From a virus, in IMG/VR virus record IMGVR_UViG_3300035488_000130, positions 1 through 22,291 of that record: a stretch of DNA of 22,291 nt; one strand, 5' to 3'. Below, piece after piece: positions 2,031-22,291 of this stretch (its first letter is position 1; every line of letters starts with the position of its first letter). The translations under genes were made by a program, and so were the position numbers. The notes beneath the pieces are model-generated. The model had not been told where the DNA came from. It did no database searches and saw nothing but the letters and a program-made list of their open reading frames with translations.

Positions 2031-3448
2031 GTTTCCGAAAAGGTAGATCCGGCTTGTAGAGCTGTCTTCTTCCCGGACCAGGTGCATTGCTCTGCTATGA
2101 TCGTGCTCTGCACTGGATCGGGATCCGTGGTGCAGAAGCAACCGCCAGGAGCGGTGATATTGCATCTTCTGGCAGTTGCCTTCGACTTGCCTATCGCGTG
2201 GACTCCGAACCAACCTTCCAGCTGGCAATCCTCCAGCTCGATCTCCGTTCCCTCGCCCCCATAGAAGTAAGTCGCTCCCCCGAGAGAGCTCTGTTTCTTT
2301 GTGTCACTCTTCAGGCTGGATTTTCTCACCGTGCCCCTGGCATCCCGGCAGTTGAGGCCATAGGCCTCCTTCGACTTGGAGCAGTCCATAGTCAGGCCTT
2401 CCAGCACAAAGCCTGACACATACCAGCAGTTCACCTGGCTGTCCGTCTTGCAGTTCCGCACCAAGAGATCGTTCGGCCCACGGCTTTCCCAATCGGTGTT
2501 GCCATGCAGATAGAACCCTTCTCTGCAGGTATAGGCTTCGCAATCCAGTACCTTGCTGCTTCGACAAGTGTCGAGCATGATGCCCGCAGCCACGCAATTC
2601 CTGGCCACCGTGCCCTGCACCAGCTCGTTGGTTCCCGAGTCGGAGCCATTATTCCCGAGGTATAGCCCGGCACCAGGCGAATTGATCAGCCTGACCTTAT
2701 ATCGCCCATTCGACCGCTTTGATCCCACCAGGATCAAAGCTTCGCCGTCTTCAGGCTTTTTTGAGACATACTGATACCGGCTGTTCCCGTCGATCGTCAG
2801 GCCCTCGATCGAGAAGTCCGAGTATCCCGGATTTATAGGGCCGGTGCCTCTGACCAGGACCATAGCCACATGCCGCGAAGCGCTTCGCTGCCAGGGCATC
2901 AGTCGGAGGGTCACCAGATCCTCGCCAGCGCCTAGGATATGGAACTTTTGCCGGTCCAATATCTGGATAGCCGAATAGAAGACATTGCTGCCATCCGGAT
3001 TCAGGCCGAAGGAATACGGCGCTGACAGGTCATATGTGCCCTCACCGATCCACAGGGTGCCTCCCTCCGGCACATTGTCCACAGCGGTCTTGAAGAGGGC
3101 TGCAGCGTCCGCTCGGGTGGGGATAGATGCCAGTTGCTTAGTTCCGGCCCTGGCAATGATGTTCTTTTCATTTTGCGTGACTTCGACATCATATTTGGTC
3201 GCTGGCGTGGGCTCAGGTTCTGGCTCGGGCTCAGGAACAGGCTCGGGGTCTGGGACTGGAACCGGGCAGGGCGTAGGTTCGGGCACAGGCACCGGTTCTG
3301 GGGTGGGCGACGGCACGGGAGCAAGTCCCCCAAACTCGCGGATGAGCTGGTTGAGGGCGTCGTCCCTGTTCCTGATCTTGTTTCTGACCTGATAGGCCTG
3401 CCAAATCATGACGGCCTCATCGCCGAGAGTCACCAATAGTCTTTTCAT
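2027..3448 (-). CDS. Ribbon-helix-helix-like N-terminus, Pro/Glu linker, right-handed beta-helix (pectin-lyase-like) domain; 473 aa
   Basis: Start re-called at ATG 3448 (MKRLLVTLGDEAV), which removes the overlap with the upstream gene; GGTLWIGEGTY, IEGLTIDGN and GIMLDTC are typical beta-helix motifs. Confidence 0.8.
   Translation of the reverse strand: MKRLLVTLGDEAVMIWQAYQVRNKIRNRDDALNQLIREFGGLAPVPSPTPEPVPVPEPTPCPVPVPDPEPVPEPEPEPEPTPATKYDVEVTQNEKNIIARAGTKQLASIPTRADAAALFKTAVDNVPEGGTLWIGEGTYDLSAPYSFGLNPDGSNVFYSAIQILDRQKFHILGAGEDLVTLRLMPWQRSASRHVAMVLVRGTGPINPGYSDFSIEGLTIDGNSRYQYVSKKPEDGEALILVGSKRSNGRYKVRLINSPGAGLYLGNNGSDSGTNELVQGTVARNCVAAGIMLDTCRSSKVLDCEAYTCREGFYLHGNTDWESRGPNDLLVRNCKTDSQVNCWYVSGFVLEGLTMDCSKSKEAYGLNCRDARGTVRKSSLKSDTKKQSSLGGATYFYGGEGTEIELEDCQLEGWFGVHAIGKSKATARRCNITAPGGCFCTTDPDPVQSTIIAEQCTWSGKKTALQAGSTFSET
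3200..3320 (-). repeat. Imperfect 6-nt-period repeat encoding a (P-E/V/T)n linker
   Basis: PVPSPTPEPVPVPEPTPCPVPVPDPEPVPEPEPEPEPTP; codons are synonymously varied. Confidence 0.8.
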
Positions 3449-3467
3449 TTCAATCAATTCCAGGAAT

Positions 3468-5015
3468 TTATTCGGCGTATGTCGATCCGTTACCCGCGAT
3501 GACGCGCGCAGGCAAGATCGCAGCCGGTGCATATATGGTGTTTTTTTCGATCACGTTGGATTTCGCATATCCTCCCGCGCTATCCACTTCTTTGATCCCC
3601 CACAGGAGATAATGCCGAAGGTCCACGATGATATTGTTTTTCACGATGTTATTTTCGGTATCACCCTCATCAGAGCCTTGCAGCTTGATGCCGGACCTGT
3701 GATCCCCACCGCGAGCACAATCGTATAGCTCGTTCTCTTCCACCGTGAAACCAGAGCACGCGTCTAGTGTGATGCCCTCGCTATAGCTGTAGTACCCCAC
3801 ATTCCGGGCAATGCTGCCATTTGTGGCCGCGCAGATATAGACACAATAGCCATAATCGGCCCTAGTACTGTATGCAGTATTATCCTCGATCTTCAGAGTA
3901 CCGTTCATGTTTTGGAGATTGATCCATTCGGCCCGCGTGTTCCTGATGGTGTTATGATGGATATTGATGCCGGTTGGGGTATCACCATACCCAAACCCCG
4001 AGATCCCGAAGTTCGCATAAACGCCATCCACGTCGACATAGCTGACCTCGCCCCCATCACAATCACAGAACTGGATACCATGCAGCCCTGAGCGCTTCAC
4101 GCTGCAGTAAGTCACATAGTTGCCGGTATAACTCGATCCGAGCCCGCCGTACCCCCAGAACAGGATGCCTACGCCGACCTTTTGAACCGGATCGGTATCC
4201 TCTGAGTACATGTCTTCTACATCTATCCACTTCACGAATGAGTTGACCGGATCGTCCAGCACGATGCCCGAATGCCGGTTCCCTTTGATCGTCCCTCTGG
4301 CGGTGTTTGAGGCCCCTTGCACGCTGTTTCCAGTGCCCACCAGCCAGATTAATGGTGAATCCCCGCTATCACAGTTCTCCCGGTTCCCGTCAATAGTTCC
4401 ATAGCAGTAAATGGTGTTCCCGCCAGACGGCCCATAGATGAGCGTATCCTCCAGCCCAGGATCTCTTGTCAGTGTCACCCCGCTGTTGATAGTCAGGGTC
4501 TTGCCTGCTCCGAGGATGTACTTCGCCGTTGCAGTAGTATCGCTGCTGATAGTGATATTGTCGGCGGTATAGGTCACTTCCAGGTAGCATTGGGTGACTC
4601 TTCCGCTGGTGTTGTAGATCCCTATACCGAACTCAGTTGCTGCTAGTTTGGCGGGCGTCCACCCCCCGCCAGGTGCGGTCAGTGTGGTCGAATAGTTGGC
4701 ATAGCTGGTTGTCAGGGTCTGCTCAGACCCGCTCTGCCAGCTCCCGTCAACCTTGCAGTAGGTCCGAGCCTTGGTGCTGCTGGTGACATACTTGCCCCTC
4801 CACCGGAGCACCACGCTACTAATGGTGCCTGCTGGAACGGACCGGACGTAGAATGTATTGTATTTATAGCTCGATATTCCGCCACCTGCGAGATATGTGG
4901 TATCGTCGTCGGGCGTACCGGCTGGATCGTCCACCGCCGCCCATGCGGTACCGGTGTTGGGCGAATTTTCAGCCAGCGACCCATTTTCAACCGGATAGAT
5001 TGTCAATGTTGCCAT
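3468..5015 (-). CDS. Tail spike/receptor-binding-like protein: N-terminal beta-sandwich plus parallel beta-helix repeats; 515 aa
   Basis: GGAGG precedes ATG 5015 (MATLTIYP); PbH1-type repeats (GINIHHNTIRNT, GSIARNVGY, FTVEENELY, NNIVKNNII); lies downstream of Dit. Confidence 0.75.
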   Translation of the reverse strand: MATLTIYPVENGSLAENSPNTGTAWAAVDDPAGTPDDDTTYLAGGGISSYKYNTFYVRSVPAGTISSVVLRWRGKYVTSSTKARTYCKVDGSWQSGSEQTLTTSYANYSTTLTAPGGGWTPAKLAATEFGIGIYNTSGRVTQCYLEVTYTADNITISSDTTATAKYILGAGKTLTINSGVTLTRDPGLEDTLIYGPSGGNTIYCYGTIDGNRENCDSGDSPLIWLVGTGNSVQGASNTARGTIKGNRHSGIVLDDPVNSFVKWIDVEDMYSEDTDPVQKVGVGILFWGYGGLGSSYTGNYVTYCSVKRSGLHGIQFCDCDGGEVSYVDVDGVYANFGISGFGYGDTPTGINIHHNTIRNTRAEWINLQNMNGTLKIEDNTAYSTRADYGYCVYICAATNGSIARNVGYYSYSEGITLDACSGFTVEENELYDCARGGDHRSGIKLQGSDEGDTENNIVKNNIIVDLRHYLLWGIKEVDSAGGYAKSNVIEKNTIYAPAAILPARVIAGNGSTYAE

Positions 5016-5075: not shown

Positions 5076-6218
5076 TCAGCTCCTCACATAAAGATCATGA
5101 TACCTTCCAGCCATATGCAATGCGGTGCCCGCGGCCACTTCCACCGTCCACGATCCGGAATATCCGGGCTCGATCACCGGGATATCATCATCCGGCACCC
5201 AGCGACGCAACGTGATATCGATGCCGTAAAGGTACAAATCGACACCGGCAGAACCGCTCTGGAAGATCATCGTAAATTCCTTCGCCCCGGCTGCGCCATC
5301 GAAATAATAATCAGTGAGGATATCAGGCTGTATGGGTGGTCCTGCTTTCCAGTCACCCAGCTCTTCGGTCTGATACCATATCTGTGCGTCCCCGCCGACG
5401 GGGTTAAGACGCGCGTGGAGCTTGGGCGGTTCGTTGAGTGGATAGTCGCTCTGGAATGAGTACGCTATCCACTCGTTCGTCAACTTAGTGTAGCCGTTCC
5501 CATATGTAGGGGTCCCAGCGAAGTCCGCGATATCTCGTTGGGTTTTGGCGTCGTCTGTCATCAAATCGGTATATTTTTGGGTGATTCTGTTACGCAGGGG
5601 TTCAAAAATTATATTTTCGTCTGTATGAATCTCAGTGACCAGACAGATCGATCCTATTCTCGTTGAGTGGTCCGACTCGTACAGCGAATAGTTGGGGCTG
5701 GCTATCAGATGTGAGCCGTCCCACCGCCCGCCTACATAGACGATCACTGGTGCCGTGGCTAGGTCTCCCGCATTTTCGACGTCCGAAAAATCGCCCAGCG
5801 TCTCAGAATCAAATGCGGTGAACGCGTCCGAATAGAAGAAAGGATCTAGGCAATACACCTCAGCATCCGCCTGATAAAGATAATCTTCGGTGCCCATCGC
5901 AACTGCTGGGATATCGTCAGTTCCATACGCATCCGCCAGGGCAACCAGAGCATAGCGATCGTCTTTGACCGGATAGAACCGGTCGCCTTCTGTGGCGGTC
6001 TTTATGGCCCGGATTGCCGAATTCATGTCATCCCGGCTTTCGCTCGCCATTGAAAAACGATATACAAACGGGTTTTGACCAGCAAACCTCAGTTTTGTGT
6101 GGTTTCTGTTGCTTGGTAACAGCATTTTGTATGTATTTATGTCTGTAACAAGCTTCATCGTGCCCACTACCATCGATGACGCTAGATCGGTGTTGGCTAT
6201 TTTGCAGACTCTTGTCAT
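5076..6218 (-). CDS. Distal tail protein (Dit)-like with an inserted domain; 380 aa
   Basis: Dit-type motifs YCLDPFFYS, VENAGDLATAPVI and C-terminal PVIEPG...YHDLY; GGAG upstream of the ATG. Confidence 0.7.
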   Translation of the reverse strand: MTRVCKIANTDLASSMVVGTMKLVTDINTYKMLLPSNRNHTKLRFAGQNPFVYRFSMASESRDDMNSAIRAIKTATEGDRFYPVKDDRYALVALADAYGTDDIPAVAMGTEDYLYQADAEVYCLDPFFYSDAFTAFDSETLGDFSDVENAGDLATAPVIVYVGGRWDGSHLIASPNYSLYESDHSTRIGSICLVTEIHTDENIIFEPLRNRITQKYTDLMTDDAKTQRDIADFAGTPTYGNGYTKLTNEWIAYSFQSDYPLNEPPKLHARLNPVGGDAQIWYQTEELGDWKAGPPIQPDILTDYYFDGAAGAKEFTMIFQSGSAGVDLYLYGIDITLRRWVPDDDIPVIEPGYSGSWTVEVAAGTALHMAGRYHDLYVRS

Positions 6219-6227
6219 ATTTTCTCC

Positions 6228-8024
6228 TTACAACACGTCCGCTGGCAGGCGGTGCCGCCGGACTATTCTACAGTTTGCATATACCATGCATTGAGGATGG
6301 CCGGTGCAATCCGAATGGGCTCCTTCCCACTCGCCGTATTTCCTTATGAAGACTGAAATGGTAACATCTGTGCCATACGACATGTATTCTGTAATATCGA
6401 TATCATTCACTGCCGAAAATAACTGCCAATCCGTGATCCAAAGATTTTTTCCGGTGACGGCACCCACGTAGACGATGAGCATCGCCTTTTGGGGTGTCAC
6501 CGCCTGCCCCTCTGCTTGTGTAAATGACAGGCTCAGAAGAACACGATGGTTATAGTCAGCGACTGTAAGCGCAGCCGGGAAATTGACAGTCAGACCGTAG
6601 CCACTACACGATCCATGAGCATCATCCAGCATCGTGGTTGGACCGGACCCCGATTTGGTGTCCAAGTCCTCAATATAATTCTGGGACCACGCCGAGTTGA
6701 GACGGTCGAGCGAGAGCAATGCCTCTCTAGCCCATGGTTTTCTCGCGCCGAACTCGTAGGTATCCACGAACTGACCGCCCTTGATGTCCATGTCAATTGC
6801 GTGGACTTGGACAATCTCGGGCGAATGGTCCCACACTTTTACCCAGTTTCGGGGCACGGCATAATGATCTAGGGCGGTGGTTATGTTCCTGGCTTTTGTG
6901 TTTCGGCGAACTGCATACTCTTCGTCAACAAAATGTTGCATCGTCCCATTGGCGTCAACAAAACCGTCTGTAATATCCAATGTGGAAAAAAAGTGGCGAC
7001 CCTTTTTCAGCCACAAATCTTGCTTAGTGTATTCCTGCCGGGAGGTACCGGGCGAACCTGCGCCGAGGCCAACGACGGCTGTAACCTCCATATCGTCGCC
7101 ATAGGATATTTCTCGTTCAAGGATATCCGAATTTTTGATATCGAACAGTCCATAAGTCTGGCCTTTCCCATTGTTTGAAAGTACATCTAGATATGTGTAC
7201 TCTGATTCGTATCTCCAAACGGGGTATCTACCATGCCCAATCGCAAACGTAAGTAGCGTTTCGCCGATCAGCTTCTCAGTATCGACGATGAAGTCTCCTG
7301 ATAACTCGATCTCCGGATGATCGATCGAGCCCGCCCTGATGTTCGTGTCGAACGCATTTTCTACGTAGATACGAGCATAATAATCTTCTACAAAACCATC
7401 AGACAGATGGATCCAGAGTTTGTTGTCCTCATAAAAATATGAGCTCTGGTTGGACACGAGCGCGACTTTGCTGGTCCGCTCAGTCAGAGCCGTGCCATTG
7501 GCATAAACGGGTTTGTCATAGAGACAGCTCCTGGTTCCGCCCTCGTCTAAATACCATATGTGGTCCCCGAGATTGAGAGGATCTTCGACCCATGCCCTTG
7601 GGGGAATAAGCGAATTTGCTGCCCACAACAGGCCTTCATTATTGGCAACTCCGTATGTGTCAGGCGTGCCCGATGGCACGTCGTCCGAAAAGGGATGGAT
7701 GAAACAATGGTCGGCATGCTTGTAAATGAGATTTGGACATACTCGCCAGTTGAGCATATCCTCCTCTCCTTGCAGGGATATCTTCCATTTGCCTTCGATC
7801 CTATTTTCGACCAGCCTGTTAACATATCCTCGAAAAACGCATCCTCCCGCGCGATTGATCGTCAGTCCTGCGCCCATCCTAACCGGACATTCGCTGGGGA
7901 CTTCCAAGACGGCACTGCTGGGGGTGACCGGATCTATGACCCGCGAAACTCGTCCGGACACTATCGGTACCGGGTCCCACGTATCTGAGCCGGGATTCTG
8001 GATTTTGGCGGTTGCGTCGGCCAT
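6228..8024 (-). CDS. Baseplate hub/Tal-like tail tip protein; 598 aa
   Basis: Start at ATG 8024 via TGATG overlap with tape measure; hub-type motifs TINRAGGCVFRGYV...ISLQGEEDMLNWR and EVTAVVGLGAG. Confidence 0.7.
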   Translation of the reverse strand: MADATAKIQNPGSDTWDPVPIVSGRVSRVIDPVTPSSAVLEVPSECPVRMGAGLTINRAGGCVFRGYVNRLVENRIEGKWKISLQGEEDMLNWRVCPNLIYKHADHCFIHPFSDDVPSGTPDTYGVANNEGLLWAANSLIPPRAWVEDPLNLGDHIWYLDEGGTRSCLYDKPVYANGTALTERTSKVALVSNQSSYFYEDNKLWIHLSDGFVEDYYARIYVENAFDTNIRAGSIDHPEIELSGDFIVDTEKLIGETLLTFAIGHGRYPVWRYESEYTYLDVLSNNGKGQTYGLFDIKNSDILEREISYGDDMEVTAVVGLGAGSPGTSRQEYTKQDLWLKKGRHFFSTLDITDGFVDANGTMQHFVDEEYAVRRNTKARNITTALDHYAVPRNWVKVWDHSPEIVQVHAIDMDIKGGQFVDTYEFGARKPWAREALLSLDRLNSAWSQNYIEDLDTKSGSGPTTMLDDAHGSCSGYGLTVNFPAALTVADYNHRVLLSLSFTQAEGQAVTPQKAMLIVYVGAVTGKNLWITDWQLFSAVNDIDITEYMSYGTDVTISVFIRKYGEWEGAHSDCTGHPQCMVYANCRIVRRHRLPADVL

Positions 8025-11000
8025 CAGTAATGCCCCCCGAACCTGGCCTGTCTCAGTATCCTGACCAACTCGTCCCTCTCTTCCTTCCACTCTCTTTTTA
8101 GCTGTTCCATCATCTCCCGTATCTGAGGCCGGGCGACGTCACCGTAAACCGACAGGTTGATATCGCCCCGACTGACCAGCGACCCGTCGCTGTGCGTTGC
8201 GTATTGATTCGAAGCTTCACCATTTATGATCGTCTGCCCCAGCGTGCTGGATACCGCGCCGGATCCAGACACCGATTGGCTTTGGACTATGCCCCCCTGG
8301 GCGAAGGTCGCTACTCCCAGTTCCTGCATTACCCTGGGGAGTATCCGGAGGCCTGCAGCTCTGTCAGAGATAGGCACAAAGGCCTCCCGACCAGCTTCGC
8401 CGAAAACGCCGAACACTGGATGATCAGTTATGCCGCCTTCCGCCCACTGGATGGCCCCGGACCCGCCTACTGCTCGAGCTCCGGCATTCATCCAGGCAGC
8501 AGTTGAAGAGCCTGACGCCGGACCGGGGCTGGCGGCAATCCAACCACCACCGCCGGATATGGAAGTTCCGCCCCAGTATGCGGCGCCTCCCCGGTTGGCT
8601 AGGCCCAGGATACTAGATCCTCCATATCCGCCGTACCCTCCATAGCCTGAACTGGCCATGACCAGGCCGTCAGCTACCCTCTGAGTCTGAATTAGGTTCT
8701 GTCTGGTGTTCTCGACTACCTTTTCCGTTGCCGTGGCGGTGTCCCTGGTGGATTCGGCCACAGAATCCCAGGTCGAAATCTCTTGATCCCCGAGGCTCGT
8801 ATAGCCTCCGCCCATGTTGCCCAATCCCTTACCACCCGGCAGGTAATCTACGCCAGGAGTAAAATTGAGGCTCGGGTCGGGCTCAACGAAAGCTATACAG
8901 GTGCCGTTGTTGTCGTATATGGCATTCCAGGCAGTCCTCCTAGTGAGGGCGTCGCTTGTGTTGATGCCGCCGGGCATAACCAGAGCATCAGAAGGCGCGG
9001 TAATCGCAGATGTGACCGGAGTCGAGCTTTTGCCTGAAAGCCAACCGCCTGGCGTGGTGGCGGCTACACCCCCTCCATAGAATGAGCTGCTTCCGCCGTA
9101 ATACGATCCAAGCGGCAGATCGAGGTTGCCCCACCGCTTGCCTCCGGGCATATAGTCAGCTCCGGGGGTGAAGTTCAGGCTTGGATCAGGCTCTACAAAG
9201 GCGATGCATGTACCATCATTGTCATAGATCGCGTTCCACACGTCGCGGTTGGTGAGTGCTTGCGCTACCTTCGGAGTCTTCAGGACGTTCTCCTCAGTCA
9301 GTCCCATAGCCACCAACTGAGCCGCCCGGATCTCTCCGCTGATCCATTCATTCCCGGTAGTCTGAGGATCGGACAGCCACGATACGGGCATGTCGCCGGT
9401 GGTGAGCACTGGTGGAGCATTCGGGAAAGAGCCCCGCTTATAGGATTCGCTTCTGATCTCGTATGGATAGTCTTCGAAATATCGCCCACTGGTTAGATAG
9501 CTCATTGAACCCTTGTCGACATTTGCCGATTGTGGGTAGAGGCCCTTGATATCTTCCTCGGGGATCACGATCTCGGGACCGGCTTCTCCGATCCAGGCCA
9601 GGCCGCCCTGAGTGACTTTGCCGCCTTCGGCCAGCTTGGGTATATTGAGCTTGCCTGGAAACTGAGATATTTTATAGCTGGTATCGGTTTTTGCTGCGGT
9701 CAGACCGGCAGGAACATTCAGCTTGCGGGCGGAGCTGTTCACCTGGGAAACAGTCTGCTTCCAGCTTGCCATGCCCGTCGTAGCTCGGGCCTCCGAAAGT
9801 AGCGACATGAGCCTGCCGTTCACGGCTTCCATAGTCGAGGCCACATCCAGGAACTTGCCCCCCAGCGTTTCTGCTGAATCGCCCGCGGTCATCATCTTTT
9901 GGGCGATGGAAGTTCCGGCTTCGCCCAATTGGGTGAACCACTTTTGGTTTGCTAGGTCAGGATCATAATCCAGCAGAGTTTCGTATATTGGAACCAGGCT
10001 CGATACGTCATTGCTTTCAAGCGCAGAATCGAACTCCTCCAGCCAGCGCAAGATGGATTGAGAGCGTTCGCTACCTTCTTCGGCCAGCTTCTGCTCATAC
10101 TTGTACCGCTCTTCCTGCTCTGTGCTGGTCGGGATCTGGCCGGTGGCGGCGTAGATCTGCTCATAGACGGCGGCGTTGCTCTTTTTCCAGAGGGCGAAGT
10201 TAGCCACGAACTCATCAACTTCCGGCTTTACGTCCACGGAGAAAGCCCGCCCGTCGAGCGTGGCCTGGATATCTGATGCGAGCTTGTCTAATCCGGATGC
10301 AGCGAACTCAACCTTATACTCTTTCTCAAGATCTTTTAGAGTCTCAAGATACCCTTCCAGAAGAGGCTTTTCGGACAGCGGAGTAACAACACCATCTTCA
10401 ACAATGTCTTCCAGAACACCGCTCATCTCGGACGATACCGATTTGAGATATTTCGGCATATCGAGTATGACCGGCTTGACCATCTCCTCCATCTCGCGTT
10501 CTGCCTCAGCGGAATCTGAATAGCCGTATTTGGCACCAAACGCTAAGCGCTTGATCTCTTCGCCTGCTTCATCCAGCAGAGCCAGGTATCCAGAAGATTG
10601 GCCGGTGGTTTTGACCATCTTCTGCATAGAGTAGGTTTCGGGGAAGGTGGTCAGTGTCCGGTTCCAAGACTCCTTGTATTTCTTTTCAAAGTCGTCGTTC
10701 CCCCCTATGATCTTGCCATTAACGACGGACATCCCGCCCGGATGAGACTTTATATAGGCATCCTGGGCAGCCGAGAACTCTTCGGCCACTTTCTCTGCTA
10801 TACCAGACGTCAGGTTATCGGCCACCGCATCAGACGCGCTCGCGGCCCCTTGTTTTGCCCCTGCGGCTATCTCTTCAGCCGTTTTTTTGCGGATGCCCGA
10901 CAGAGAGACGTTATACCATTCGCCATTGAGGGCGAAATCCCCGACATTGCCCTGAGACAGGTTCTCCATCATCCCCTGGCCCGCCTTCCATATCTCGGAA

Positions 11001-13249: not shown

Positions 13250-13346
13250 TGAAAAACTGGCCAAAACCAGCCGCTCAGGAGGACGGTTTTTGGGTGCGCA
13301 ACCTAGGGGTTGGCCACTAAATAGCTATCTATAAAAATGTAGCTAT
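13250..13346 (-). promoter_or_regulatory. Intergenic control region: TATA-like box inside an inverted repeat, plus hairpins and a T-tract
   Basis: ATAGCTA(13321-27)...TAGCTAT(13340-46) flank TATAAAAA; minus-strand CCAAAAACC...GGTTTTGG stem, then CTGG/CCAG followed by TTTTT. Confidence 0.4.
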
Positions 13347-14350
13347 TGTTTTCTCAGGAACGGACCGCAATTGGGGCCGCCCCGAGATTCGAAGCGCAGT
13401 TTCACGCCGTTGATGCCATCGCCCGGAATGGTGATATTGGCTTGAGGGATCTGGCAGTAGTCCACCCAACGGATATCGTTGTCTTCATCCGCATAGAAGA
13501 TAGCTATGGCCGTGTCACCGCCGCTTGCGCCTGTAACATCCGTCCAGTCCGTAGGTTCCAGGCCGCCAGCCAGATGGGTATGAGCCATCACGGCAAGAGT
13601 TCCGACACCCGTTTCGCCAGATTTCAGCTCTGCCCGGACCTTGAGATCCTGGCATTGGCCGTTCTTGTTGAATGCTTCGACCAGCTGGGCGGCGGTTGTG
13701 GCGGTGTTAGGGGTGATGACGATATCGGTTCCCGTGACGACTATTGCCAGGGCACCCGCGCCAGGAGTGACATATTCTATCGATATGTTGTTTCCAGAGG
13801 TACCTCCTTCCACATGGGTATAGACTATATCGTTGTCCAACCCAGTTATTGCGGTCGTCAGAGTAGCACAGGTCTTGACCATCACGGTATCTGCCGAAGC
13901 CGACCATTCTTTCTGCTTGAGAACGGTCCTCTTTGCGGTGTCCCTGAGGAACATGATCTTTTCAGTGTCCCATCCGGCATCGAAAGAGACGTTTTTCACG
14001 CCGGAAACTGACACCGGCGTAAGACACTTCCCTGAGAGGCATCTCACGGTATCGGCTGACCCGAGTGCCGTGGCTAGATAGATGCGGCAGTCCGGATACT
14101 CTACCTTCTGAGTAGTCAGAGTCGTCCATGTGCCCGTGCCCCCGGCGGAATACTGGAATACGGGAACAGTGCCATCATCCAGGTTCCTCTTTGCGGGATC
14201 GGTGATCTCATAGACCGTGTAGCGAGGCCTGTAAGAGGATGGATCTGCAGAGAGATCCACCTCGTTCATGGCTTCGTTCGTCAGGTCTTGGGGCGTGCCA
14301 CTGCATATTTTCAGTGCTGCCACTCTGCCGACTGTAATATTAAGAGCCAT
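13343..14350 (-). CDS. Tail tube protein paralog with two inserted domains; 335 aa
   Basis: Shares MALNITVGRVAALK and GVKNVSFDAGWDTEKIMFLRDTAKRTV..KEWS with the adjacent 140-aa tube protein. Confidence 0.75.
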   Translation of the reverse strand: MALNITVGRVAALKICSGTPQDLTNEAMNEVDLSADPSSYRPRYTVYEITDPAKRNLDDGTVPVFQYSAGGTGTWTTLTTQKVEYPDCRIYLATALGSADTVRCLSGKCLTPVSVSGVKNVSFDAGWDTEKIMFLRDTAKRTVLKQKEWSASADTVMVKTCATLTTAITGLDNDIVYTHVEGGTSGNNISIEYVTPGAGALAIVVTGTDIVITPNTATTAAQLVEAFNKNGQCQDLKVRAELKSGETGVGTLAVMAHTHLAGGLEPTDWTDVTGASGGDTAIAIFYADEDNDIRWVDYCQIPQANITIPGDGINGVKLRFESRGGPNCGPFLRKQ

Positions 14351-14359
14351 TTGGCCCCC

Positions 14360-14782
14360 CTATGCAGGCACGGTCATAGCCACACCGTTCTCCTCGATAG
14401 TGAACGATGCGTTGTTCTCGTTCATCGGGTCGAAACCAGGAGAGTACTTTGTGACCTTTCCAGTCGTGCACATGAAAGTGGTCGTGGTTGCGGTTGCCGT
14501 TCCAGGATAGAGCATGAAAGCTATATCGCTGCCCGCGTTGTATGCGGTCCGGATGATGTCCTGGCCGGGGTCCGCGAAATCTTCCGTCAGTGTGCCCGTA
14601 AGGGTCCAATTCTTCAGAAGCATGACAGTGGTTCGGGCCGTGTCCTGAAGATGCATGATCTTCTTCGTTTCCCAGTTCGCATCTATGGAAACGTTCTGTG
14701 CTCCCAGAACGGTGGTTGTGGCCGTCCCGGATGTGGCTACACAAAGCTTTGCGTTCCTTCCTAATGTTATTGTCAGTACCAT
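14360..14782 (-). CDS. Major tail tube protein (TP901-1-like family); 140 aa, Thr-rich
   Basis: GAQNVSIDANWETKKIMHLQD...KNWTLTG...SFTIEENG tube pattern; GGAGG upstream. Confidence 0.8.
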   Translation of the reverse strand: MVLTITLGRNAKLCVATSGTATTTVLGAQNVSIDANWETKKIMHLQDTARTTVMLLKNWTLTGTLTEDFADPGQDIIRTAYNAGSDIAFMLYPGTATATTTTFMCTTGKVTKYSPGFDPMNENNASFTIEENGVAMTVPA

Positions 14783-15509: not shown

Positions 15510-15929
15510 TTATTCCACCGCCTTAAAATCTATCGTGAGGATCTCGATCCACTGAAGGAGATCGTCGCTTGTGTCTGAATACAGGCTCCATCCCACCAGG
15601 CCGAAGGACAATTGCCCCCCGCTCCAGGGCAATGAGAATAGAGCTCTGATATGAGCTTTCACTGCCTCGATGAGGGCTTTCGCGGCGTCTTCGGATGATG
15701 CAGATATCGCCCGAACCTCGAGCTGGCCTGAGACGCGGTCGTTATCACCGCCAATATACGGAACTCCCCGAGACGGCAGATCAGCAACCATCAAGCAGGC
15801 GTACGGCGAATTGCTCACCATCTCATCCTGGAGTGAAAAGTTCCTGCCGGAGATAACACCAGTAATGAGCGGCCCTATGGTGTCCGAGTTCTGGAGGGAG
15901 GCAGCCAATGCTGAGGAGAGAGTAGACAT
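15510..15929 (-). CDS. Tail terminator-like protein (gp17/gpU-like); 139 aa
   Basis: Position between the gp10-like gene and the tail tube; PYACLMV, GQLEVRAIS...AAKALIEAVK and terminal LTIDF pattern. Confidence 0.65.
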   Translation of the reverse strand: MSTLSSALAASLQNSDTIGPLITGVISGRNFSLQDEMVSNSPYACLMVADLPSRGVPYIGGDNDRVSGQLEVRAISASSEDAAKALIEAVKAHIRALFSLPWSGGQLSFGLVGWSLYSDTSDDLLQWIEILTIDFKAVE

Positions 15930-15962
15930 AATTATTTATCCTTGAAAACTCATTATTTTGGT

Positions 15963-16265
15963 ATGCTGAAAATTCTAATAGCTATCATGCTGGTAGTGGG
16001 GGTCGGATGTGGTGACATTTGGGGTATGACCCCGGCAACACGAAACGACATGGCAATTAAGAGTGGTCTCACCAACCATGGTACATCGGATTTGCCGATG
16101 ATAGATGATCCCGATGTACTGAAAGTTTACATCGTCCGGGACGGTACAGCGCTTGCGATCGTTGCCCTCCAGAACGAGGATGGTCAGTGGGTCGTGGGAT
16201 TTACCGATATAAAGTCACAAAGCTATTATCTAGGGAATGAAACTGGGGCAGTAAAAATAACCTAG
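15963..16265 (+). CDS. Small secreted or membrane-anchored protein, antisense to the late operon (moron-like); 100 aa
   Basis: MLKILIAIMLVVGVGCG signal-like N-terminus; TTTATC at 15935-15940, about 25 nt before the ATG (leaderless promoter spacing); fills the gap between two minus-strand genes. Confidence 0.65.
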   Translation: MLKILIAIMLVVGVGCGDIWGMTPATRNDMAIKSGLTNHGTSDLPMIDDPDVLKVYIVRDGTALAIVALQNEDGQWVVGFTDIKSQSYYLGNETGAVKIT

Positions 16266-16630
16266 CCCTCATACACCCTATCGATACATTCCCGCGCCTT
16301 CGCCTGCATGATGGCCGATCCGGGCCGGATGAAAGGCCGAAATCGCCACACTCTTTTTCCAGATTTGGGTCCAAATTCCTGATGCGACGTGTAATCGGCA
16401 TCTGACCCCAGCGTCATCTCATATATGCAGGGAGCAAGCCGTTTCACGCCGCTTGCTCTCTCTATGCCGTCGTCCATGAAGTTGGTGTCCTTCAGGGAGA
16501 GAGCATGGGCCACGTTCTTGCCTTCGATTAGCATCTGTTCGGCGACTTGCTTGCTGAGACCGTCCTGGCGGGCGATCTCCCTGGCGATCTCAGCCCGGAG
16601 CTTGGAGGTATCTATTTTCAGGTCAATCAT
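16262..16630 (-). CDS. HK97 gp10-like tail completion protein (copy 2); 122 aa
   Basis: DADYTSHQEFG...RPFIRPG motif. Confidence 0.75.
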   Translation of the reverse strand: MIDLKIDTSKLRAEIAREIARQDGLSKQVAEQMLIEGKNVAHALSLKDTNFMDDGIERASGVKRLAPCIYEMTLGSDADYTSHQEFGPKSGKRVWRFRPFIRPGSAIMQAKARECIDRVYEG

Positions 16631-17384
16631 ATAGTTCTCCTAGTTGGGCATCAGATAGGCCTACAAAAGACTCTTTAGACTTCTTCCCAAACCCGTATTC
16701 AAGATGGCAACGGCAGTTGATATCATGTTCCCCAGGGTATTGCTCACCGTCTGAGAAGGCTTCATCTATGCCCACAACTTCGCCGTTGAGCTTCTGGTGA
16801 GCGGGCCTAACCCGGCCATCTCCGACCGTCACCCATTCTTTGGTCTGCGATCCTGCCCTTTTGGCGAACTCAAGAGAGCTGCCCCAGGTCATGCGGTGCC
16901 GTTCTGTCCGGATGATCCGCCGCGCCCTGAATCCCGAATTGTCCACGATAGATGAAAGGTTAGGCTGTTTCAGGATTGCTCTGGCAAGAGGCCGCTCGTT
17001 CATCCCGGAATTGGAGAATATGAAGTTGGTTAGGAGCTTCTTGTCTGTAGATGTCATGAGCTTGATCGCGGTTCCTACGCGCGGGCGAAAGTACTTTTCC
17101 GCTATGTCGCCCACGTTCCAGACTTCGGTCAGGCCATAGGCGCTCGCGAACTCCGCGCTTGATAGCTCCATCTCCTTGAGCAGCGTGCCCTCCAGGAACT
17201 CCCAGACGGCCTTGTTCTTAGCTTTCGATGCCAATACATACTTTCGCATCGGGCCTGGCTGGATGAGGTCCATAGGCTTGTAGGGGCCGTCCACGTCGAA
17301 GAATTCCACCGATTCCAGGTAGGCTTTGATCTCGGGCCCGAACTTCTTCAGGATGTCTTGGATGACATGTTCTGGGAGAGTCAT
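16623..17384 (-). CDS. Phage Mu F / SPP1 gp7-like minor head protein; 253 aa
   Basis: RARRIIRTE, KEWVTVGDGRVRPAHQKLNG and HDINCRC are diagnostic motifs. Confidence 0.88.
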   Translation of the reverse strand: MTLPEHVIQDILKKFGPEIKAYLESVEFFDVDGPYKPMDLIQPGPMRKYVLASKAKNKAVWEFLEGTLLKEMELSSAEFASAYGLTEVWNVGDIAEKYFRPRVGTAIKLMTSTDKKLLTNFIFSNSGMNERPLARAILKQPNLSSIVDNSGFRARRIIRTERHRMTWGSSLEFAKRAGSQTKEWVTVGDGRVRPAHQKLNGEVVGIDEAFSDGEQYPGEHDINCRCHLEYGFGKKSKESFVGLSDAQLGELYD

Positions 17385-17785
17385 GCTACCAGGTAAGTGT
17401 AAAATTCGCTCGATCCATCCAGACCGGGATTGTCCTCAACCTTCAGGATCGTGTAATCGGTGCCGTTGAGCCTGATCTTGTCGCCCACTGCCATGACTGC
17501 CGTGCAATAGACCGCATCCCTCGTGGACGTCCACACTCCAGCGGCATTGAACTCCCGGAGAGAGTACTCATCAAGTACGATCCTGCTTATGGCCTGGTTC
17601 TTCGCCCCAGAGGCCTGCAGGACTTGGCGGTAGACTCGGCCACCGGGATTGAGGCCTATCTGGGCTATCATCTCCCTCTTGGTAGAATCTCTCGGAAGGT
17701 CGAAATAGCCAGCCTGGTCGAGGAGGCGGACGATTTCGGGCGCCCAGTCCCTGAGAAGCTGCAGGATCTCTTCGTCCGGGGTCAT
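17381..17785 (-). CDS. Putative head-closure (stopper)-like protein with an extra N-terminal helix; 134 aa
   Basis: C-terminal VGDKIRLNGTDYTILKVEDNPG pattern of gp16/gpFII-like proteins; ATGA overlaps on both sides. Confidence 0.55.
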   Translation of the reverse strand: MTPDEEILQLLRDWAPEIVRLLDQAGYFDLPRDSTKREMIAQIGLNPGGRVYRQVLQASGAKNQAISRIVLDEYSLREFNAAGVWTSTRDAVYCTAVMAVGDKIRLNGTDYTILKVEDNPGLDGSSEFYTYLVA

Positions 17786-18333
17786 TTCAAGAACAGCCGC
17801 CTGAATATTTCGGTTCCAGTCGGGCCGACAAAACAGCTTATCTGGCCTATGATGTAATCGATACCATCAAACCGGAACATACCACCGATACTGCAATTGC
17901 TATCTGTCGTATCGGCTATGGCCTGGCTCAGAGTCCATGCGCCGGATGCGTCCACGAAAGCCTTTTGGGAGTTCATGAACCGGCATCTAATGGCCGTTGC
18001 CGTCTCTTTTAGGATTGGAGCTCCACCCGAATTCAGAGCCTCAACCAGCACATTACAATCCAGGCCGGTACAGGCGATCACCGGGAGAGCTGATAGGCTC
18101 GTGGTGGTGGTCTTCTTCCCGACTGCCGTGAAGGTCAGCGTCTCAGAGCCTACTGTAATCGATCCGGCGCAATCGGTGTGGCCTGTGGCTACGGATACGG
18201 TCACAGCGCACCGGAAGGGCACGGACGGCAGGCCATCTCCATTCAATGTGCCCACGCCAGATGATAGACCGTTGTAGATCCTCCAGTTGGCCCGATCTAC
18301 CCGGGAAGCGTCCTGGCGGATGCCTATGACCAT
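17782..18333 (-). CDS. Head-closure (stopper)-like protein with an inserted beta-rich domain; 183 aa
   Basis: IRCRF...DASGAWTLSQA...IGGMFRFDGIDYIIGQI...GPTG; follows the adaptor. Confidence 0.6.
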   Translation of the reverse strand: MVIGIRQDASRVDRANWRIYNGLSSGVGTLNGDGLPSVPFRCAVTVSVATGHTDCAGSITVGSETLTFTAVGKKTTTTSLSALPVIACTGLDCNVLVEALNSGGAPILKETATAIRCRFMNSQKAFVDASGAWTLSQAIADTTDSNCSIGGMFRFDGIDYIIGQISCFVGPTGTEIFRRLFLK

Positions 18334-18854
18334 GTTGCCTCGATCGCCCCGGATATGTAGCCTTTCAGGAAATCGAATGCATCTGAGCTCAATAAGCCCT
18401 TGTGCTTTGCTTTTCCGGAAGAACCAAACGTCTCTGAATAGCCGCCCCCGAGAGTGTAGCTCTTAACCCCCTGGTTTTGGAGGGTCTCGCGTTCCTGGCC
18501 TTCAGTATCCGCATGATGCAGGTATATTGCCAGGGACTCCTCACAGCAGGCATCGAGCACTTCCTGTGGCACTTCGGGCAGCAGCGTATTGACGTTCCAG
18601 CCGTAGCACATCCCGTCTATCCAGCGAGGAAACTGACGATCCTGCTGCAGGCCCATGATCGGAGAGACGGTCACAAAATCATAATATGTCCGCCCCTTGA
18701 GCGGCAGATTATCGATTATTTTTGTAGCCCTCTGTAGGTACCAGGCCAGAGAGGAGAGGGCGAGGAAAGCGGTAGCCCTGGGGTCACCGGCGAAGTATGC
18801 CCGCGCCTCTTCTTCCGTGGCTATATAGCTGCCGGATACTGGTGTTTCTGTCAT
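18324..18854 (-). CDS. Head-tail adaptor (DnaT-like/gp15-like), copy 2; 176 aa
   Basis: SYIATEEEARAYF, QRATKIID, QFPR, VPQEVLDACCEES and GVKSYTLG motifs. Confidence 0.75.
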   Translation of the reverse strand: MTETPVSGSYIATEEEARAYFAGDPRATAFLALSSLAWYLQRATKIIDNLPLKGRTYYDFVTVSPIMGLQQDRQFPRWIDGMCYGWNVNTLLPEVPQEVLDACCEESLAIYLHHADTEGQERETLQNQGVKSYTLGGGYSETFGSSGKAKHKGLLSSDAFDFLKGYISGAIEATWS

Positions 18855-18991
18855 GTGTTACCCCAGTCGTTCTTTTCTCTTTCGTCCATGAAGGAAACTA
18901 TGACATCCGGGTAGCCCTGCGATTCGTCTATCCTGATCTCTCCGACCCATCCTTGCTCGTCCATCAGGTCAAAAATTTTGAGCCTCATCAT
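18851..18991 (-). CDS. Small hypothetical protein, 46 aa
   Basis: ATGA overlaps at both ends (18988-18991 and 18851-18854). Confidence 0.55.
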   Translation of the reverse strand: MMRLKIFDLMDEQGWVGEIRIDESQGYPDVIVSFMDEREKNDWGNT

Positions 18992-19305
18992 TTCCCCACA
19001 AAATGAAGATATGCCATGACAATAGCGAACGATGCGAACATAGTTACCGGCTGGTTCACAATCCGCCATATGGCGGTTAAGGTCGTTACTTTCGCGTCGC
19101 TCTTGATACTACAATATCGTAGATTGCTCACCTGTTCCTGGATGGCTATTAGGCGTTCTTTAATTTCTGGTAGAGTTGATGCATATATCTTCAGGGTAGA
19201 GACTTCGCTCCATATCTGGCTGATATCCGATTCATGCCGCTTGCTGTCTGATTCTAGCACGCATACTCGGGCGTGTAAGACCGCAGGATCGCAATCGTCG
19301 GCCAT
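18988..19305 (-). CDS. Coiled-coil protein with a C-terminal transmembrane helix (XhlA-like architecture); 105 aa
   Basis: Heptad-like region followed by VTMFASFAIVMAYLHF; adjacent to the holin-like gene. Confidence 0.65.
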   Translation of the reverse strand: MADDCDPAVLHARVCVLESDSKRHESDISQIWSEVSTLKIYASTLPEIKERLIAIQEQVSNLRYCSIKSDAKVTTLTAIWRIVNQPVTMFASFAIVMAYLHFVGK

Positions 19306-19311
19306 CCAGCC

Positions 19312-19506
19312 TCATTTTGGGAGAATGCTCTGGATCTTCTCAGAAGTCCACAATACCCGCACCATCGCCATAACGGCGATTCCCGTGGCAAATATCTGTT
19401 CAGGTGTGAGAGGAAAATCGATGCCTGTAGACTTTCCGAGAAGTACCAATGCATAGCTTATGATGGCGATAGCCACCTCTTTAGATCCAATTACGCTTTC
19501 TGCCAT
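19312..19506 (-). CDS. Holin-like two-TM membrane protein; 64 aa
   Basis: Two hydrophobic segments (VAIAIISYALVLLG; IFATGIAVMAMVRVLW) and a charged C-terminus; GGTGA upstream. Confidence 0.6.
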   Translation of the reverse strand: MAESVIGSKEVAIAIISYALVLLGKSTGIDFPLTPEQIFATGIAVMAMVRVLWTSEKIQSILPK

Positions 19507-19968
19507 TTATATCACCTTTCCAAGCTTTTTATATTTGTTTGAATCCAGGGACCGGACGCCGCCGCCCATGCCCTTCCACCAGAGTCGCATCATGAGGACC
19601 AGGGCTATGGGATCTGTCCCGTACTGCTCCTCCCATTCGGCCACTGTCATGAGCTGCTTTGGGCTGGCCGGGGAAGCGACCAGTATCCCTCTTCCGCCGT
19701 GCGCCTCCTGCAGGAAGTCGATCGTGAGCTGGTCCTTCACGAAGCCTATGATCTTTTCATCAGCGATTTTGCCGCTATATGGGACTTCTTTAGGGCCATC
19801 CTCGGTATCGACGATCAGCGATTTTATCAGGTCGCTGAAGCCTATGAAGGGGCTGGCAAACCTAATCTGGCTTGGCTTTGCGTTTACCTCATCAGGAAAA
19901 CAGCATATGCCATCCACCATCAGGTAGTCTTCCTCGGTTTCAATTTCATCTTCTGGCAAAATAATCAC
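19507..19968 (-). CDS. Hypothetical protein with an acidic N-terminus; 153 aa
   Basis: GTG start in a GTGA overlap; stop abuts the next ATG. Confidence 0.7.
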   Translation of the reverse strand: MIILPEDEIETEEDYLMVDGICCFPDEVNAKPSQIRFASPFIGFSDLIKSLIVDTEDGPKEVPYSGKIADEKIIGFVKDQLTIDFLQEAHGGRGILVASPASPKQLMTVAEWEEQYGTDPIALVLMMRLWWKGMGGGVRSLDSNKYKKLGKVI

Positions 19969-20258
19969 CTATCTATCGTTTGGAATGCCATAGGCGCGTA
20001 GCTGCCGTTCCAACTCCCAATGGCGCTTTGGCTTACATATGATAACCAGGATGAGCCGGGCACGATCACTGGGGCCGTCCGGTATACATTGTACCCGGTC
20101 TGAAGCCTTCCAATATCCGGATGGTCCCAGGAGTCCTTGATTGTGATCTTGGATTCCTCCACCACATTCTGGATGTGGATGGACTTCTCCCGGACAATGT
20201 CAACAGGCAAATCCTGGGCAAAAATGGGGATGCAGATGAGCAGCAGTGCGCTGATCAC
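19965..20258 (-). CDS. Small secreted protein, 97 aa; start re-called at GTG 20258
   Basis: GTGA overlap with the previous stop; signal-like MISALLLICIPIFA-Q. Confidence 0.6.
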   Translation of the reverse strand: MISALLLICIPIFAQDLPVDIVREKSIHIQNVVEESKITIKDSWDHPDIGRLQTGYNVYRTAPVIVPGSSWLSYVSQSAIGSWNGSYAPMAFQTIDR

Positions 20259-20977
20259 ATGCAGGGAAGCCAATCTACGCTGATAGCGCCGCATGTGGAG
20301 TTACCCCAGAGCTGGATGAACTTCTCAACTGCGAAGACGCCGGTCATATCGTCCACAGATCGGCCGTATTCAGCATGGCGGCCCTTGAGCAGCTTGTTGG
20401 GCTCGGGATCCCTGGAAAGCCAGCCTATGTGAGCTACGCCAATGACGTTGCTGTTCAGGTTAGCCTCAAGGACGCCGGTGCAACAGTTTTCGACACAAGA
20501 ATCGTCATAGCCCCGGGTCTTGATCTCGGTGGTCTTCTGCAGGTGTTCCGCATGGCTGTACATCTCGGTCAGCACAGCACCGATTCTGTAATTCTGCACG
20601 CACAGCTTGTCCACCCACTTTGCGTCATACTGGCCAGTCTGATAGGATATGGGCATGTACTCGAACTCAGCTTCCTTGGTGTAGTTGATGTAGTCCATGG
20701 CGCAGGTGTTCGGAAACTCGCAGGCCATCTTCGAGCCGGAACCGTTGAGCTGCCGCTCAGCCTCCAGCTCCGTCCTCAGCAGGACCACGTTGCCGGACCC
20801 GGCCACGTGCTCTACCAGCTTCTGGCCGCTGAAGCCCACCTGGGTCTGGACAATCTTCTCCTGCTCCAGGTAGCCTACGCCCTTTATCGAATTCTTTTCA
20901 TACATGTAGTTGGCAGCCTGGGCCTGGCTTAGCCAGACGATGGCCACCAATACCAAAAATGCAATTATCTTTCTCAT
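20255..20977 (-). CDS. Secreted Cys-rich beta-type protein resembling a Methanothrix host family; 240 aa
   Basis: AAGGAGGT before ATG 20977; signal peptide MRKIIAFLVLVAIVWLSQAQA; 8 Cys; strongly G/C-ending codons. Confidence 0.8.
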   Translation of the reverse strand: MRKIIAFLVLVAIVWLSQAQAANYMYEKNSIKGVGYLEQEKIVQTQVGFSGQKLVEHVAGSGNVVLLRTELEAERQLNGSGSKMACEFPNTCAMDYINYTKEAEFEYMPISYQTGQYDAKWVDKLCVQNYRIGAVLTEMYSHAEHLQKTTEIKTRGYDDSCVENCCTGVLEANLNSNVIGVAHIGWLSRDPEPNKLLKGRHAEYGRSVDDMTGVFAVEKFIQLWGNSTCGAISVDWLPCM

Positions 20978-20982
20978 AAAAT

Positions 20983-21075
20983 ACCTCCTTAATTTTTTTA
21001 AACTATTATTAAGAAGAGGTGGTTTCCCCGTAAGAAGGGAGCTGAAGCCCAAGACCGGGAAAACTATTATTTTTT
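20983..21075 (-). promoter_or_regulatory. AT-rich upstream region with SD, 11-bp direct repeats and a predicted stem
   Basis: AAACTATTATT at 21000-21010 and 21061-21071; arms 21022-21030 and 21056-21064 are complementary; GGAGGT SD. Confidence 0.45.
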
Positions 21076-21095
21076 CTGATAATGATTTTCCGTAT

Positions 21096-21440
21096 CTAAC
21101 CCCAGATCGCTTTCAGAGCCGCTGCTATATCCTGGTGGTATTGGTCCTCGGCTTCCAGGAGCGGGCCTCTAAGATAGTTGGGGCCCGTCCCCGCGTGGCT
21201 GGGAGTATAATTCTGGCTCTCGTGCATGACCAGCGCATAAGGTGTGTTGAAACTGATTTCGGCTCCCCTCTCCAGCACGGTGACCGTGGCAGAATTGCGG
21301 AGCGTTCCCTCTTCTAAAGGTGCTCTATTGACAGCTTCTCCTTTGACTGTCTCTGCGGTCATAATTGCCACCTCTTTGGCTGCTTGTTTGGCCGCTGCTA
21401 TCAGTCGTTCGCCATGCCACACAATAGTTGGGATCGCCAT
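21096..21440 (-). CDS. HK97 gp10-like/minor capsid-type tail completion protein (copy 1); 114 aa
   Basis: APLEEGTLRNS...FNTPYALVMHE...NYLRGP motif; GAGGTGA SD. Confidence 0.8.
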   Translation of the reverse strand: MAIPTIVWHGERLIAAAKQAAKEVAIMTAETVKGEAVNRAPLEEGTLRNSATVTVLERGAEISFNTPYALVMHESQNYTPSHAGTGPNYLRGPLLEAEDQYHQDIAAALKAIWG

Positions 21441-21449
21441 TCACCTCTA

Positions 21450-21764
21450 TTATGCCTGATTTTTGGACATATTCACGACTCGTAAGGACATTCCCAGATA
21501 GCCGTTCGTTGTGGCCACGTCGAGAACCGGCCAGGTAAAGCTACTTCGGGTGAGTGCGTCTCCTTCGGCTACTGTGGCATCCTTCGTCAGGCAAAAAGCA
21601 TCACAGATCACATCTTCTCGGCCTTCATGGTGGATGGTTCGCTTCTGATCAAACCAGATGACAGTGATTGAAGAATCTGAGTAAGTCGGCTCGTTGTATT
21701 CATTTGCGCCGGTCTTGTGCTTCAGGGTCACCGTCTCGCCCAGGCCAGGAGGTAAGAGGCTCAT
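21450..21764 (-). CDS. Head-closure (stopper) protein, copy 1; 104 aa; start re-called at ATG 21764
   Basis: ATGA overlap with the adaptor; ETVTLKHKTGANEYNEPTY...VAEGDALT...WPVLDV is a gp16-like pattern. Confidence 0.75.
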   Translation of the reverse strand: MSLLPPGLGETVTLKHKTGANEYNEPTYSDSSITVIWFDQKRTIHHEGREDVICDAFCLTKDATVAEGDALTRSSFTWPVLDVATTNGYLGMSLRVVNMSKNQA

Positions 21765-22291
21765 TTCAGTTCGGACCCCAAGTATCGCCGCAACAATCGC
21801 CGTGATGTGGCGCTCAGGAGAGAAGCCGACCCGACCCCGGCCGTGAATGTGTAGGAGAGTTTTCCACCAATAGACATGCTGGTAACTCCGTTCTCCTGTA
21901 GTGTCTTCAGGCCGCCATCGGTGCCTGCCGCGCATATGGCTATGGCTTCCTCCATGCAGGCCCGTTTCACGATCACGGGTACTGTGGGTAGCTGGGTGCC
22001 ATGGTCATAGTCGCAGATTTCGCCATCGATGATCCTGGGAAACTCCAGGACCTGGGCTAGGCCGTCACTGTTGGAGTCTTTCTGTATGCCGTTCTCGATG
22101 TACGGCTCTTCATATCTACGGCCCCTGAGAGGGAGCTGGTCGATGTGCTCCGTGGCCTGCTGGCAGTACCATTCTTGGTCAGTGGCAGAAGCGTTTTTCA
22201 GCTCGATGGCCGAGGCTCTCTTGTCGACGCCGATCAGGCTTTCAAGCTCGGCATCGGTGGCTATATAAGATTTGAGGAAAGAGACGTCGAC
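21761..22291 (-). CDS. Head-tail adaptor (DnaT-like), copy 1; 5'-partial
   Basis: Frame is open from the window edge (VDVSFLKSYIATDAEL...QQATEHIDQLPLRGR...EFPRIIDG...VPVIVKRACMEEA...GVTSMSIGG); the ORF track shows only the last 71 aa. Confidence 0.8.
   Translation of the reverse strand, partial: VDVSFLKSYIATDAELESLIGVDKRASAIELKNASATDQEWYCQQATEHIDQLPLRGRRYEEPYIENGIQKDSNSDGLAQVLEFPRIIDGEICDYDHGTQLPTVPVIVKRACMEEAIAICAAGTDGGLKTLQENGVTSMSIGGKLSYTFTAGVGSASLLSATSRRLLRRYLGSELK

Follow-up and report, generated by a model that had tools for sequence, protein, structure and literature searches.

Gene content of the doubled neck region

IMG/VR record IMGVR_UViG_3300035488_000130 is a virus contig of 22,291 bp with an estimated completeness of ~40%, and its whole length, referred to here as the window, was analyzed. 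The window carries two modules of head-tail joining (neck) genes, module 1 at 21096 to 22291 and module 2 at 15510 to 18854. This agrees with a prediction made earlier from the nucleotide sequence (the original prediction), whose coordinates and gene inventory were right apart from one gene, L. The structural genes all lie on the minus strand and were designated in the direction of transcription, giving the order A-B-C-D-E-F-G-H-I-J-K-L-M-N-O from position 22291 down. The reading frames of A to O are intact, and their translational coupling, which had also been predicted, is seen as ATGA overlaps at A/B, I/J, K/L, and L/M and as short overlaps at J/K and M/N. Taken as a whole, the evidence presented below points to an ordinary cause for this doubling, namely mosaic viruses that exchanged DNA, or were mis-joined, through a shared cassette.

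Each module begins with a putative head-tail adaptor gene, A (21761 to 22291, truncated at its 5′ end where the contig stops) in module 1 and J (18324 to 18854) in module 2. The two proteins are 38% identical (E value, 1e-26). J matches phrog_541 (E value, 1e-5) and phrog_477 (3e-4), A matches phrog_541 weakly (0.0068), and the adaptor family profile gave weak matches to "adaptor protein" chains in the PDB (E values, 0.13 to 0.18). The adaptor gene of related viruses is positioned after the gene for the major capsid protein (MCP). Together, these matches give moderate support to the assignment of A and J as head-tail adaptors of the SPP1 gp15/HK97 gp6 type.

The second gene of module 1, B (21450 to 21764; 104 amino acids), was assigned by structure prediction. 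An AlphaFold model of B, built with 12 homologues (predicted local distance difference test [pLDDT] score, 83), was matched by Foldseek to SPP1 gp16, lambda neck, T1 stopper, and gene transfer agent (GTA) stopper chains, and B is therefore predicted to adopt the stopper (head-closure) beta-barrel fold of SPP1 gp16 and lambda gpFII. The corresponding gene of module 2 is K (17782 to 18333). Alignment of the B and K family profiles with hhalign (91.5%; E value, 9e-7) placed residues 18 to 100 of B on residues 98 to 183 of K; because the B-family profile matches the C-terminal ~85 amino acids of K, this protein consists of a stopper domain with an additional N-terminal part of ~95 residues.

The original prediction had counted three stopper-like genes. 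B is supported by its model and K by its C-terminal domain, but the third gene, L (17381 to 17785), has a different composition. In the related locus L003, K is followed by a MuF protein whose N-terminus shares 95% identity with residues 1 to 83 of L. The identity with L003 breaks at ~17540 (codon 83), and the last ~50 residues of L align best with the C-terminus of K homologues in L006 and L007. Judged from these alignments, L is a hybrid open reading frame (ORF), with a MuF-type N-terminus and a foreign K-type stopper C-terminus, and the scar of an older non-homologous join rather than a third stopper. The exact L protein is found on 9 contigs. At least five assemblies, made independently in different studies, have the order K-L-M-N-O together with J, and in several of them it continues through the tube genes. 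Because of this recurrence, the join within L is certainly natural, and the scar shows that redundant neck fragments persist in these viruses.

Both modules also contain a putative Neck1/HK97 gp10-like gene. C, in module 1 (21096 to 21440), matches phrog_5 (E value, 2.6e-5) and phrog_556 (1e-9), and its match to the Pfam family HK97-gp10_like (0.01) is below the cut-off. N, in module 2 (16262 to 16630), matches phrog_5 weakly (0.005) and has an Atlas score of 0.96 to clusters that are partly HK97-gp10_like. A comparison of the C profile with the N profile gave no similarity. Module 2 additionally contains O (15510 to 15929), for which an AlphaFold model (22 homologues; pLDDT, 86) returned 56 PDB matches with E values of ≤1e-3, including the terminators of lambda (gpU), T5 (p142), Haloferax tailed virus 1 (HFTV1), and GTA. 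O is thus predicted to be a tail terminator of the gpU fold, encoded upstream of the tube genes. Within the window, module 1 lacks a terminator; in the related locus L016, a 115-amino-acid connector protein (phrog_2595) encoded before the tube gene is a candidate for this role. When the PDB was searched by sequence with profiles of B, K, C, N, and O, no informative match was obtained.

The remaining gene of module 2, M (16623 to 17384), encodes a MuF-domain minor head protein (Pfam Phage_Mu_F; E value, 8e-15), and the MuF gene also has this position after K in L003, L004, and L054. Viruses of the J-K type carry the MuF gene after the stopper, inside the neck module (16623 to 17384 in the window; 11070 to 11807 in L003), and have no gene in the gap between portal and scaffold. 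In relatives of the B-C type, a MuF-like minor head gene lies in its usual place beside the portal (L011, 5466 to 6353; L014, 4628 to 5434).

Related viruses carry a single neck

Approximately 150 related loci were fetched, and each was scanned with hidden Markov models (HMMs) of the adaptor, the terminator, and the two types each of stopper and Neck1. Each of the ~48 adaptor-bearing loci has one adaptor, and two were found only in the window. Genes of the B/C type and of the K/N type never occur together outside the window. When the whole records of ten relatives were searched, nine had a single adaptor and the tenth, a 16-kb fragment, had none. Of the nine, two records (54.7 and 64.3 kb) are complete and have terminal repeats, and a third is 91% complete. 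The census and the whole-record searches rule out a conserved dual-neck architecture, and the co-occurrence of both modules in related genomes, which the original prediction had proposed as a check, was not found. In the adaptor of L008, the gene is split over two frames (matches at 8556 to 8753 and 8668 to 9138; locus, 8574 to 9141), reflecting either a frameshift or a sequencing error.

The portal, scaffold, and MCP genes are also single in relatives. Extra genes of portal and capsid size upstream in L003 and L016, considered as a possible doubling of the head genes, proved to encode an Mtd-like protein (Pfam mtd_2nd) and a reverse transcriptase (RT). The gene order in L003, a structure that was assembled twice, is portal-scaffold-MCP-220-63-Mtd-RT-89-D-E-F-G-H-I-J-K-MuF-Neck1, and that in L016 is RT-97-94-A-B-C-D-E-F′, followed further on by connector-tube-tube-TAC-TMP (TAC, tail assembly chaperone; TMP, tape measure protein). 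The single neck module therefore lies after the D-E-F genes in L003 and before them in L016.

An adaptor tree placed J as the sister of the L004 adaptor (support, 99/98), within a group formed with L004, L051, and L009, and placed A as the sister of the L019 adaptor and not of J. A is 88% identical to the L019 adaptor and J is 69% identical to that of L004, compared with 38% between A and J, and the tree and these identities rule out tandem duplication in situ. A is also 100% identical to the adaptor of L016, L017, and L018, where it is the sole adaptor. Judging by the tree, A and J are xenologues, each grouping with the adaptors of single-neck viruses. The original prediction had described them as diverged paralogs; their homology is real, whereas a maintained pair of paralogs is not what the tree supports.

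The window is a mosaic of two virus types

Sliding identity against related contigs yielded a map of the window in which three pieces can be assigned to different counterparts. From 22291 to ~21050, the window is 100% identical to L016, L017, L018, and L036, which are of the type DGR-A-B-C-D-E-F′-tail (DGR, diversity-generating retroelement). From 20978 to 20000 it is 100% identical to L027, which carries D-E-F′ and continues into an F′ of the L016 type. From 20782 to 7381 it is 99.98 to 100% identical to L028, L030, and L023, which carry D′-E-F-G-H-I-J-K-L-M-N-O-tail, D′ being a version of D with a different and shorter signal-peptide N-terminus. L045 is 100% identical over the part that it covers, D′ to F; upstream of D′ it has head genes, the DGR, the 89-amino-acid gene, and four cargo genes, without A-B-C.

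The second and third pieces overlap in a stretch of 780 bp inside D and E (20000 to 20782, minus strand) that is identical in both parental types and forms the zone of a crossover or mis-join. At least ten independent contigs, among them L023, L027, L028, L030, L036, and L145, stop close to one of the edges of this zone or at the intergenic region between C and D. The linkage of the window version of D to F is present only in the window. Elsewhere, this version of D leads into F′ (L027), and F is preceded by D′ (four contigs: L023, L028, L030, and L045) or by a D of the L003 type (three contigs, including L003 and L142). An exact look-up of C for contigs crossing the junction returned no record, that of B returned a 1.2-kb contig ending at the C/D element, and that of D returned L027 only. 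The original prediction had named 18854 to 21096 as the interval in which a misassembly would have to lie, and these breakpoints fall inside it.

A second junction lies in the C/D intergenic region (20978 to 21095, minus strand), where a conserved element (AATAATAGTTTTCCCGGTCTTGGG...) is found upstream of D in three gene contexts. The window version of this element is its own variant, with no sharp switch between known parents, and the C/D junction looks genuine for this reason. A window-specific junction 37-mer and a 31-mer from the N-terminus of D were both absent from IMG/VR. At the 5′ side of A, the window (~22270 to 22291) and the independent Logan contig L036 end within ~22 nucleotides of each other, which suggests a further population breakpoint at the 5′ end of this adaptor gene.

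Each module has copies of 100% identity in single-neck contigs, and F through O are identical in L030. There are consequently no substitutions to count, and the intactness of the genes is uninformative about selection in a two-neck context. Compared with L019, the ratio of nonsynonymous to synonymous substitution rates (dN/dS) is 0.32 for A, 0.42 for B, and 0.10 for C, and by these ratios all three genes are under purifying selection across the family.

The D-E-F cassette and flanking genes

The genes between the two modules begin with a cassette that roams among these viruses. Its first gene, D (20255 to 20977), encodes a secreted, cysteine-rich protein with a signal peptide and has more than 516 metagenome relatives at 58 to 96% identity; the protein encoded by the next gene, E (19965 to 20294), is identical in at least four virus backbones. 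D and its companions are located before the adaptor in L003, L045, and L061, after the stopper in L037 and L047, after Neck1 in L016 and L053, and between MuF and Neck1 in L054. The N-terminal signal-peptide segment of D is swapped between variants at 20782. Members of the D family also occur as tandem arrays of three to four copies on contigs of 46 to 217 kb (L070, L072, L077 to L079, L094, L097, L114, and L134), and because these long contigs appear cellular, the virus copy of D looks host derived. The small genes F, G, H, and I (18851 to 19968) precede adaptor J in contigs of the L003 and L028 types and have no Pfam or PHROGs family match.

Downstream of O lie a glycosyltransferase-like gene, two tube genes, a chaperone pair, a tape measure gene of 1,458 amino acids, and distal tail genes. 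The two tube genes (13343 to 14782) form a pair encoding a small (127 to 156 amino acids) and a large (307 to 335 amino acids) tube-like protein, and the pair is kept in many single-neck relatives (L012, L016, L052, and L058). Since it recurs there, the pair is a trait of the family that is unlinked to the doubling of the neck, and its proposed tie to a two-version virion is not upheld. An integrase is encoded at 1122 to 2030, on which basis the element was called temperate. A 107-amino-acid ORF with a hydrophobic N-terminus lies on the plus strand between N and O (15942 to 16265), antisense to the structural operon; a gene of ~100 amino acids was called at the same site in L028 to L031 and L033, and it is without a family match.

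In both parental types, a DGR consisting of an Mtd-like target, an RT, and small accessory genes lies between the capsid gene and the adaptor (L003, 4386 to 7635; L016, 172 to 1744; L019, 1220 to 4745), and the RT is ~93% identical between the types. By extension from these relatives, a DGR is probably located just beyond the right end of the window. In L019, a gene directly after A-B-C (5931 to 7115) encodes a protein that is 50% identical to residues 115 to 500 of the distal beta-helix protein of the window (2027 to 3532), a neighborhood that may be taken as a further sign of module shuffling. Similar genes are present downstream of D-F in L043, L048, L086, and L099, where they are on the opposite strand.

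A search of genomes with the adaptor family, using a narrower alignment, gave one match, in a Methanotrichaceae metagenome-assembled genome, and the samples are mostly anaerobic digesters, bioreactors, and tailings. Because of this sole genome match and the anaerobic sample types, the window fits an archaeal (Methanothrix-type) tailed virus.

Origin of the doubled neck

We interpret the doubled neck as a by-product of joining two viruses, either in vivo or in silico, across the 780 bp that they share. The reading that we favor, and to which we give an even chance, is that two temperate, siphovirus-like viruses of Methanothrix-type archaea, circulating together, underwent a homologous crossover very recently. 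One parent, of the L016/L027 type, would have had the order capsid, DGR, A-B-C, D-E-F′, and tail; the other, of the L003/L028/L045 type, would have had capsid, DGR, D-E-F-G-H-I, J-K-(L)-MuF-N-O, and tail. Both would have carried the same mobile D-E-F cassette, on opposite sides of a single neck module, and because the cassette flanks the neck in these opposite ways, a crossover through it either duplicates or deletes the neck. An exchange within the identical bases of D and E (20000 to 20782) would have placed A-B-C upstream of J-K-L-M-N-O, while the reciprocal product would have been left without any neck genes, so that only the doubled form would be viable. One of the two modules would then be a redundant passenger, tolerated because the element is temperate and the event too young for decay. 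That such exchanges happen is supported by the L fusion and the whole J-to-R block, each seen in at least five independent assemblies, by the L003 structure, and by the identity of E across backbones; as judged from these independent contigs, the viruses demonstrably recombine at the same boundaries in nature. The original prediction had included a stable chimera of two proviruses among its explanations, and a chimera of two viruses or proviruses is indeed what the mosaic map supports, but not its stability.

Several observations weigh against an in vivo crossover and are shared with, or favor, the other form of the join, in which an assembler crossed between single-neck viruses of the L016/L027 and L028/L045 types through the shared 780 bp and no two-neck genome exists. 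We regard such an assembly chimera as a serious possibility, somewhat short of an even chance. No independent contig joins the window N-terminus of D to an F of the L028 type, a connection that is unique to the window, while the two parental linkages are both seen elsewhere. The 780-bp identical stretch, which is bracketed by the ends of the independent contigs described above, is probably longer than short-read inserts, a situation in which assemblers can mis-join. Contig-set membership suggests that both parental types come from one sample series (33000354xx-356xx). The three pieces of the window have diverged hardly or not at all from their counterparts, which would be expected of an in silico join too. 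To our knowledge, doubled neck modules are rare in isolate genomes, which also counts toward a chimera. On the other side, assemblers usually break, rather than join, at such repeats. A contig that crosses three population breakpoints suggests an unbranched path in the source sample, and the natural recombination of this group at the same boundaries further favors a crossover. In benchmarks, chimeric contigs made up <5% of contigs of ≥10 kb (PMC5610896).

The other explanations take the two modules as a working or an inherited state. In a selected two-neck system, the modules would act together, as a stacked or extended neck or as a bridge from a type 1 head to a type 2 tail, or alternately, in two particle forms. 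This we consider highly unlikely. The intact and coupled frames and the purifying selection on the A-B-C family (dN/dS, 0.10 to 0.42) are consistent with it, and, as the L scar attests, module 2 had already arisen in nature as a hybrid of two lineages, so that unusual neck combinations are tolerated. However, the frames are just as intact in the identical copies from single-neck genomes, no relative has both modules, A and J are xenologues rather than a maintained pair, and paired tubes occur without doubled necks. The stacked rings and the two alternative particle types envisaged by the original prediction accordingly found no support among the single-module relatives. A real and viable hybrid, in which a type 1 head is completed by A-B-C and a type 2 tail joins through N-O, with J-K as an extra ring or as part of a second particle form, is improbable in our view; if true, it would represent an archaeal tailed virus whose neck is naturally doubled or extended. 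We hold it to be extremely unlikely that a double neck was ancestral and that the L016-type and L003-type lineages each lost one module. In favor of such differential loss, the gene order around the cassette is collinear between the two parental types (MCP, DGR, {A-B-C}, D-E-F, {..J-K..}), but no remnants of the missing module are found in L003, where a 234-nucleotide intergenic region separates the 89-amino-acid gene from D, or in L016. The cassette occupies at least four different positions in other relatives, no deeper-branching relative among the loci examined has a double neck, and the 100% identity of the window pieces to present-day single-neck genomes is incompatible with an old, retained state.

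Comparison with known systems

In gene content, each module of the window resembles the neck of type 1 siphoviruses (SPP1 gp15/gp16/gp17, HK97 gp6/gp10, and lambda gpW/gpFII/gpU) and of their archaeal counterpart in HFTV1, with an adaptor, a stopper of the beta-barrel fold, and a putative Neck1/gp10-like protein, and module 2 also shares with it a gpU-like terminator ahead of the tube genes. The arrangement differs from these systems in that two modules lie on one contig, the neck region is interrupted by the D-to-I cargo block, and the J-K type has its MuF gene inside the neck module and not beside the portal.

Hendrix and colleagues have reportedly described phage mosaicism in lambdoid and HK97-group phages, in which exchange occurs at gene borders and "moron" cassettes are mobile. 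The window is similar in that the limits of its 100% identical blocks coincide with gene borders or lie close to them (the E/F border, the C/D element, and the 5′ end of A), and the D-E-F cassette, with its own conserved upstream element and its varied positions, is similar to a moron. In contrast to that mosaicism, the cassette follows the neck in one parent and precedes it in the other, so that exchange duplicates, or would delete, a structural module, and the viruses are archaeal. The window also resembles chimeric viral metagenome contigs, since a long segment is identical between related viruses that occur together and many contigs end at the limits of this segment, but unlike a clean chimera it carries its own variant at the C/D junction rather than a switch from parent to parent.

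These findings call for caution in reading uncultivated virus contigs from strain-rich samples. They also describe a large and highly mosaic group of Methanothrix-associated tailed viruses, with a DGR between head and neck, a MuF gene in the neck module, and a cassette for a host-like secreted protein. When a roaming cargo cassette of this kind lies on opposite sides of an essential module in different viruses, exchange through the cassette duplicates or deletes that module.

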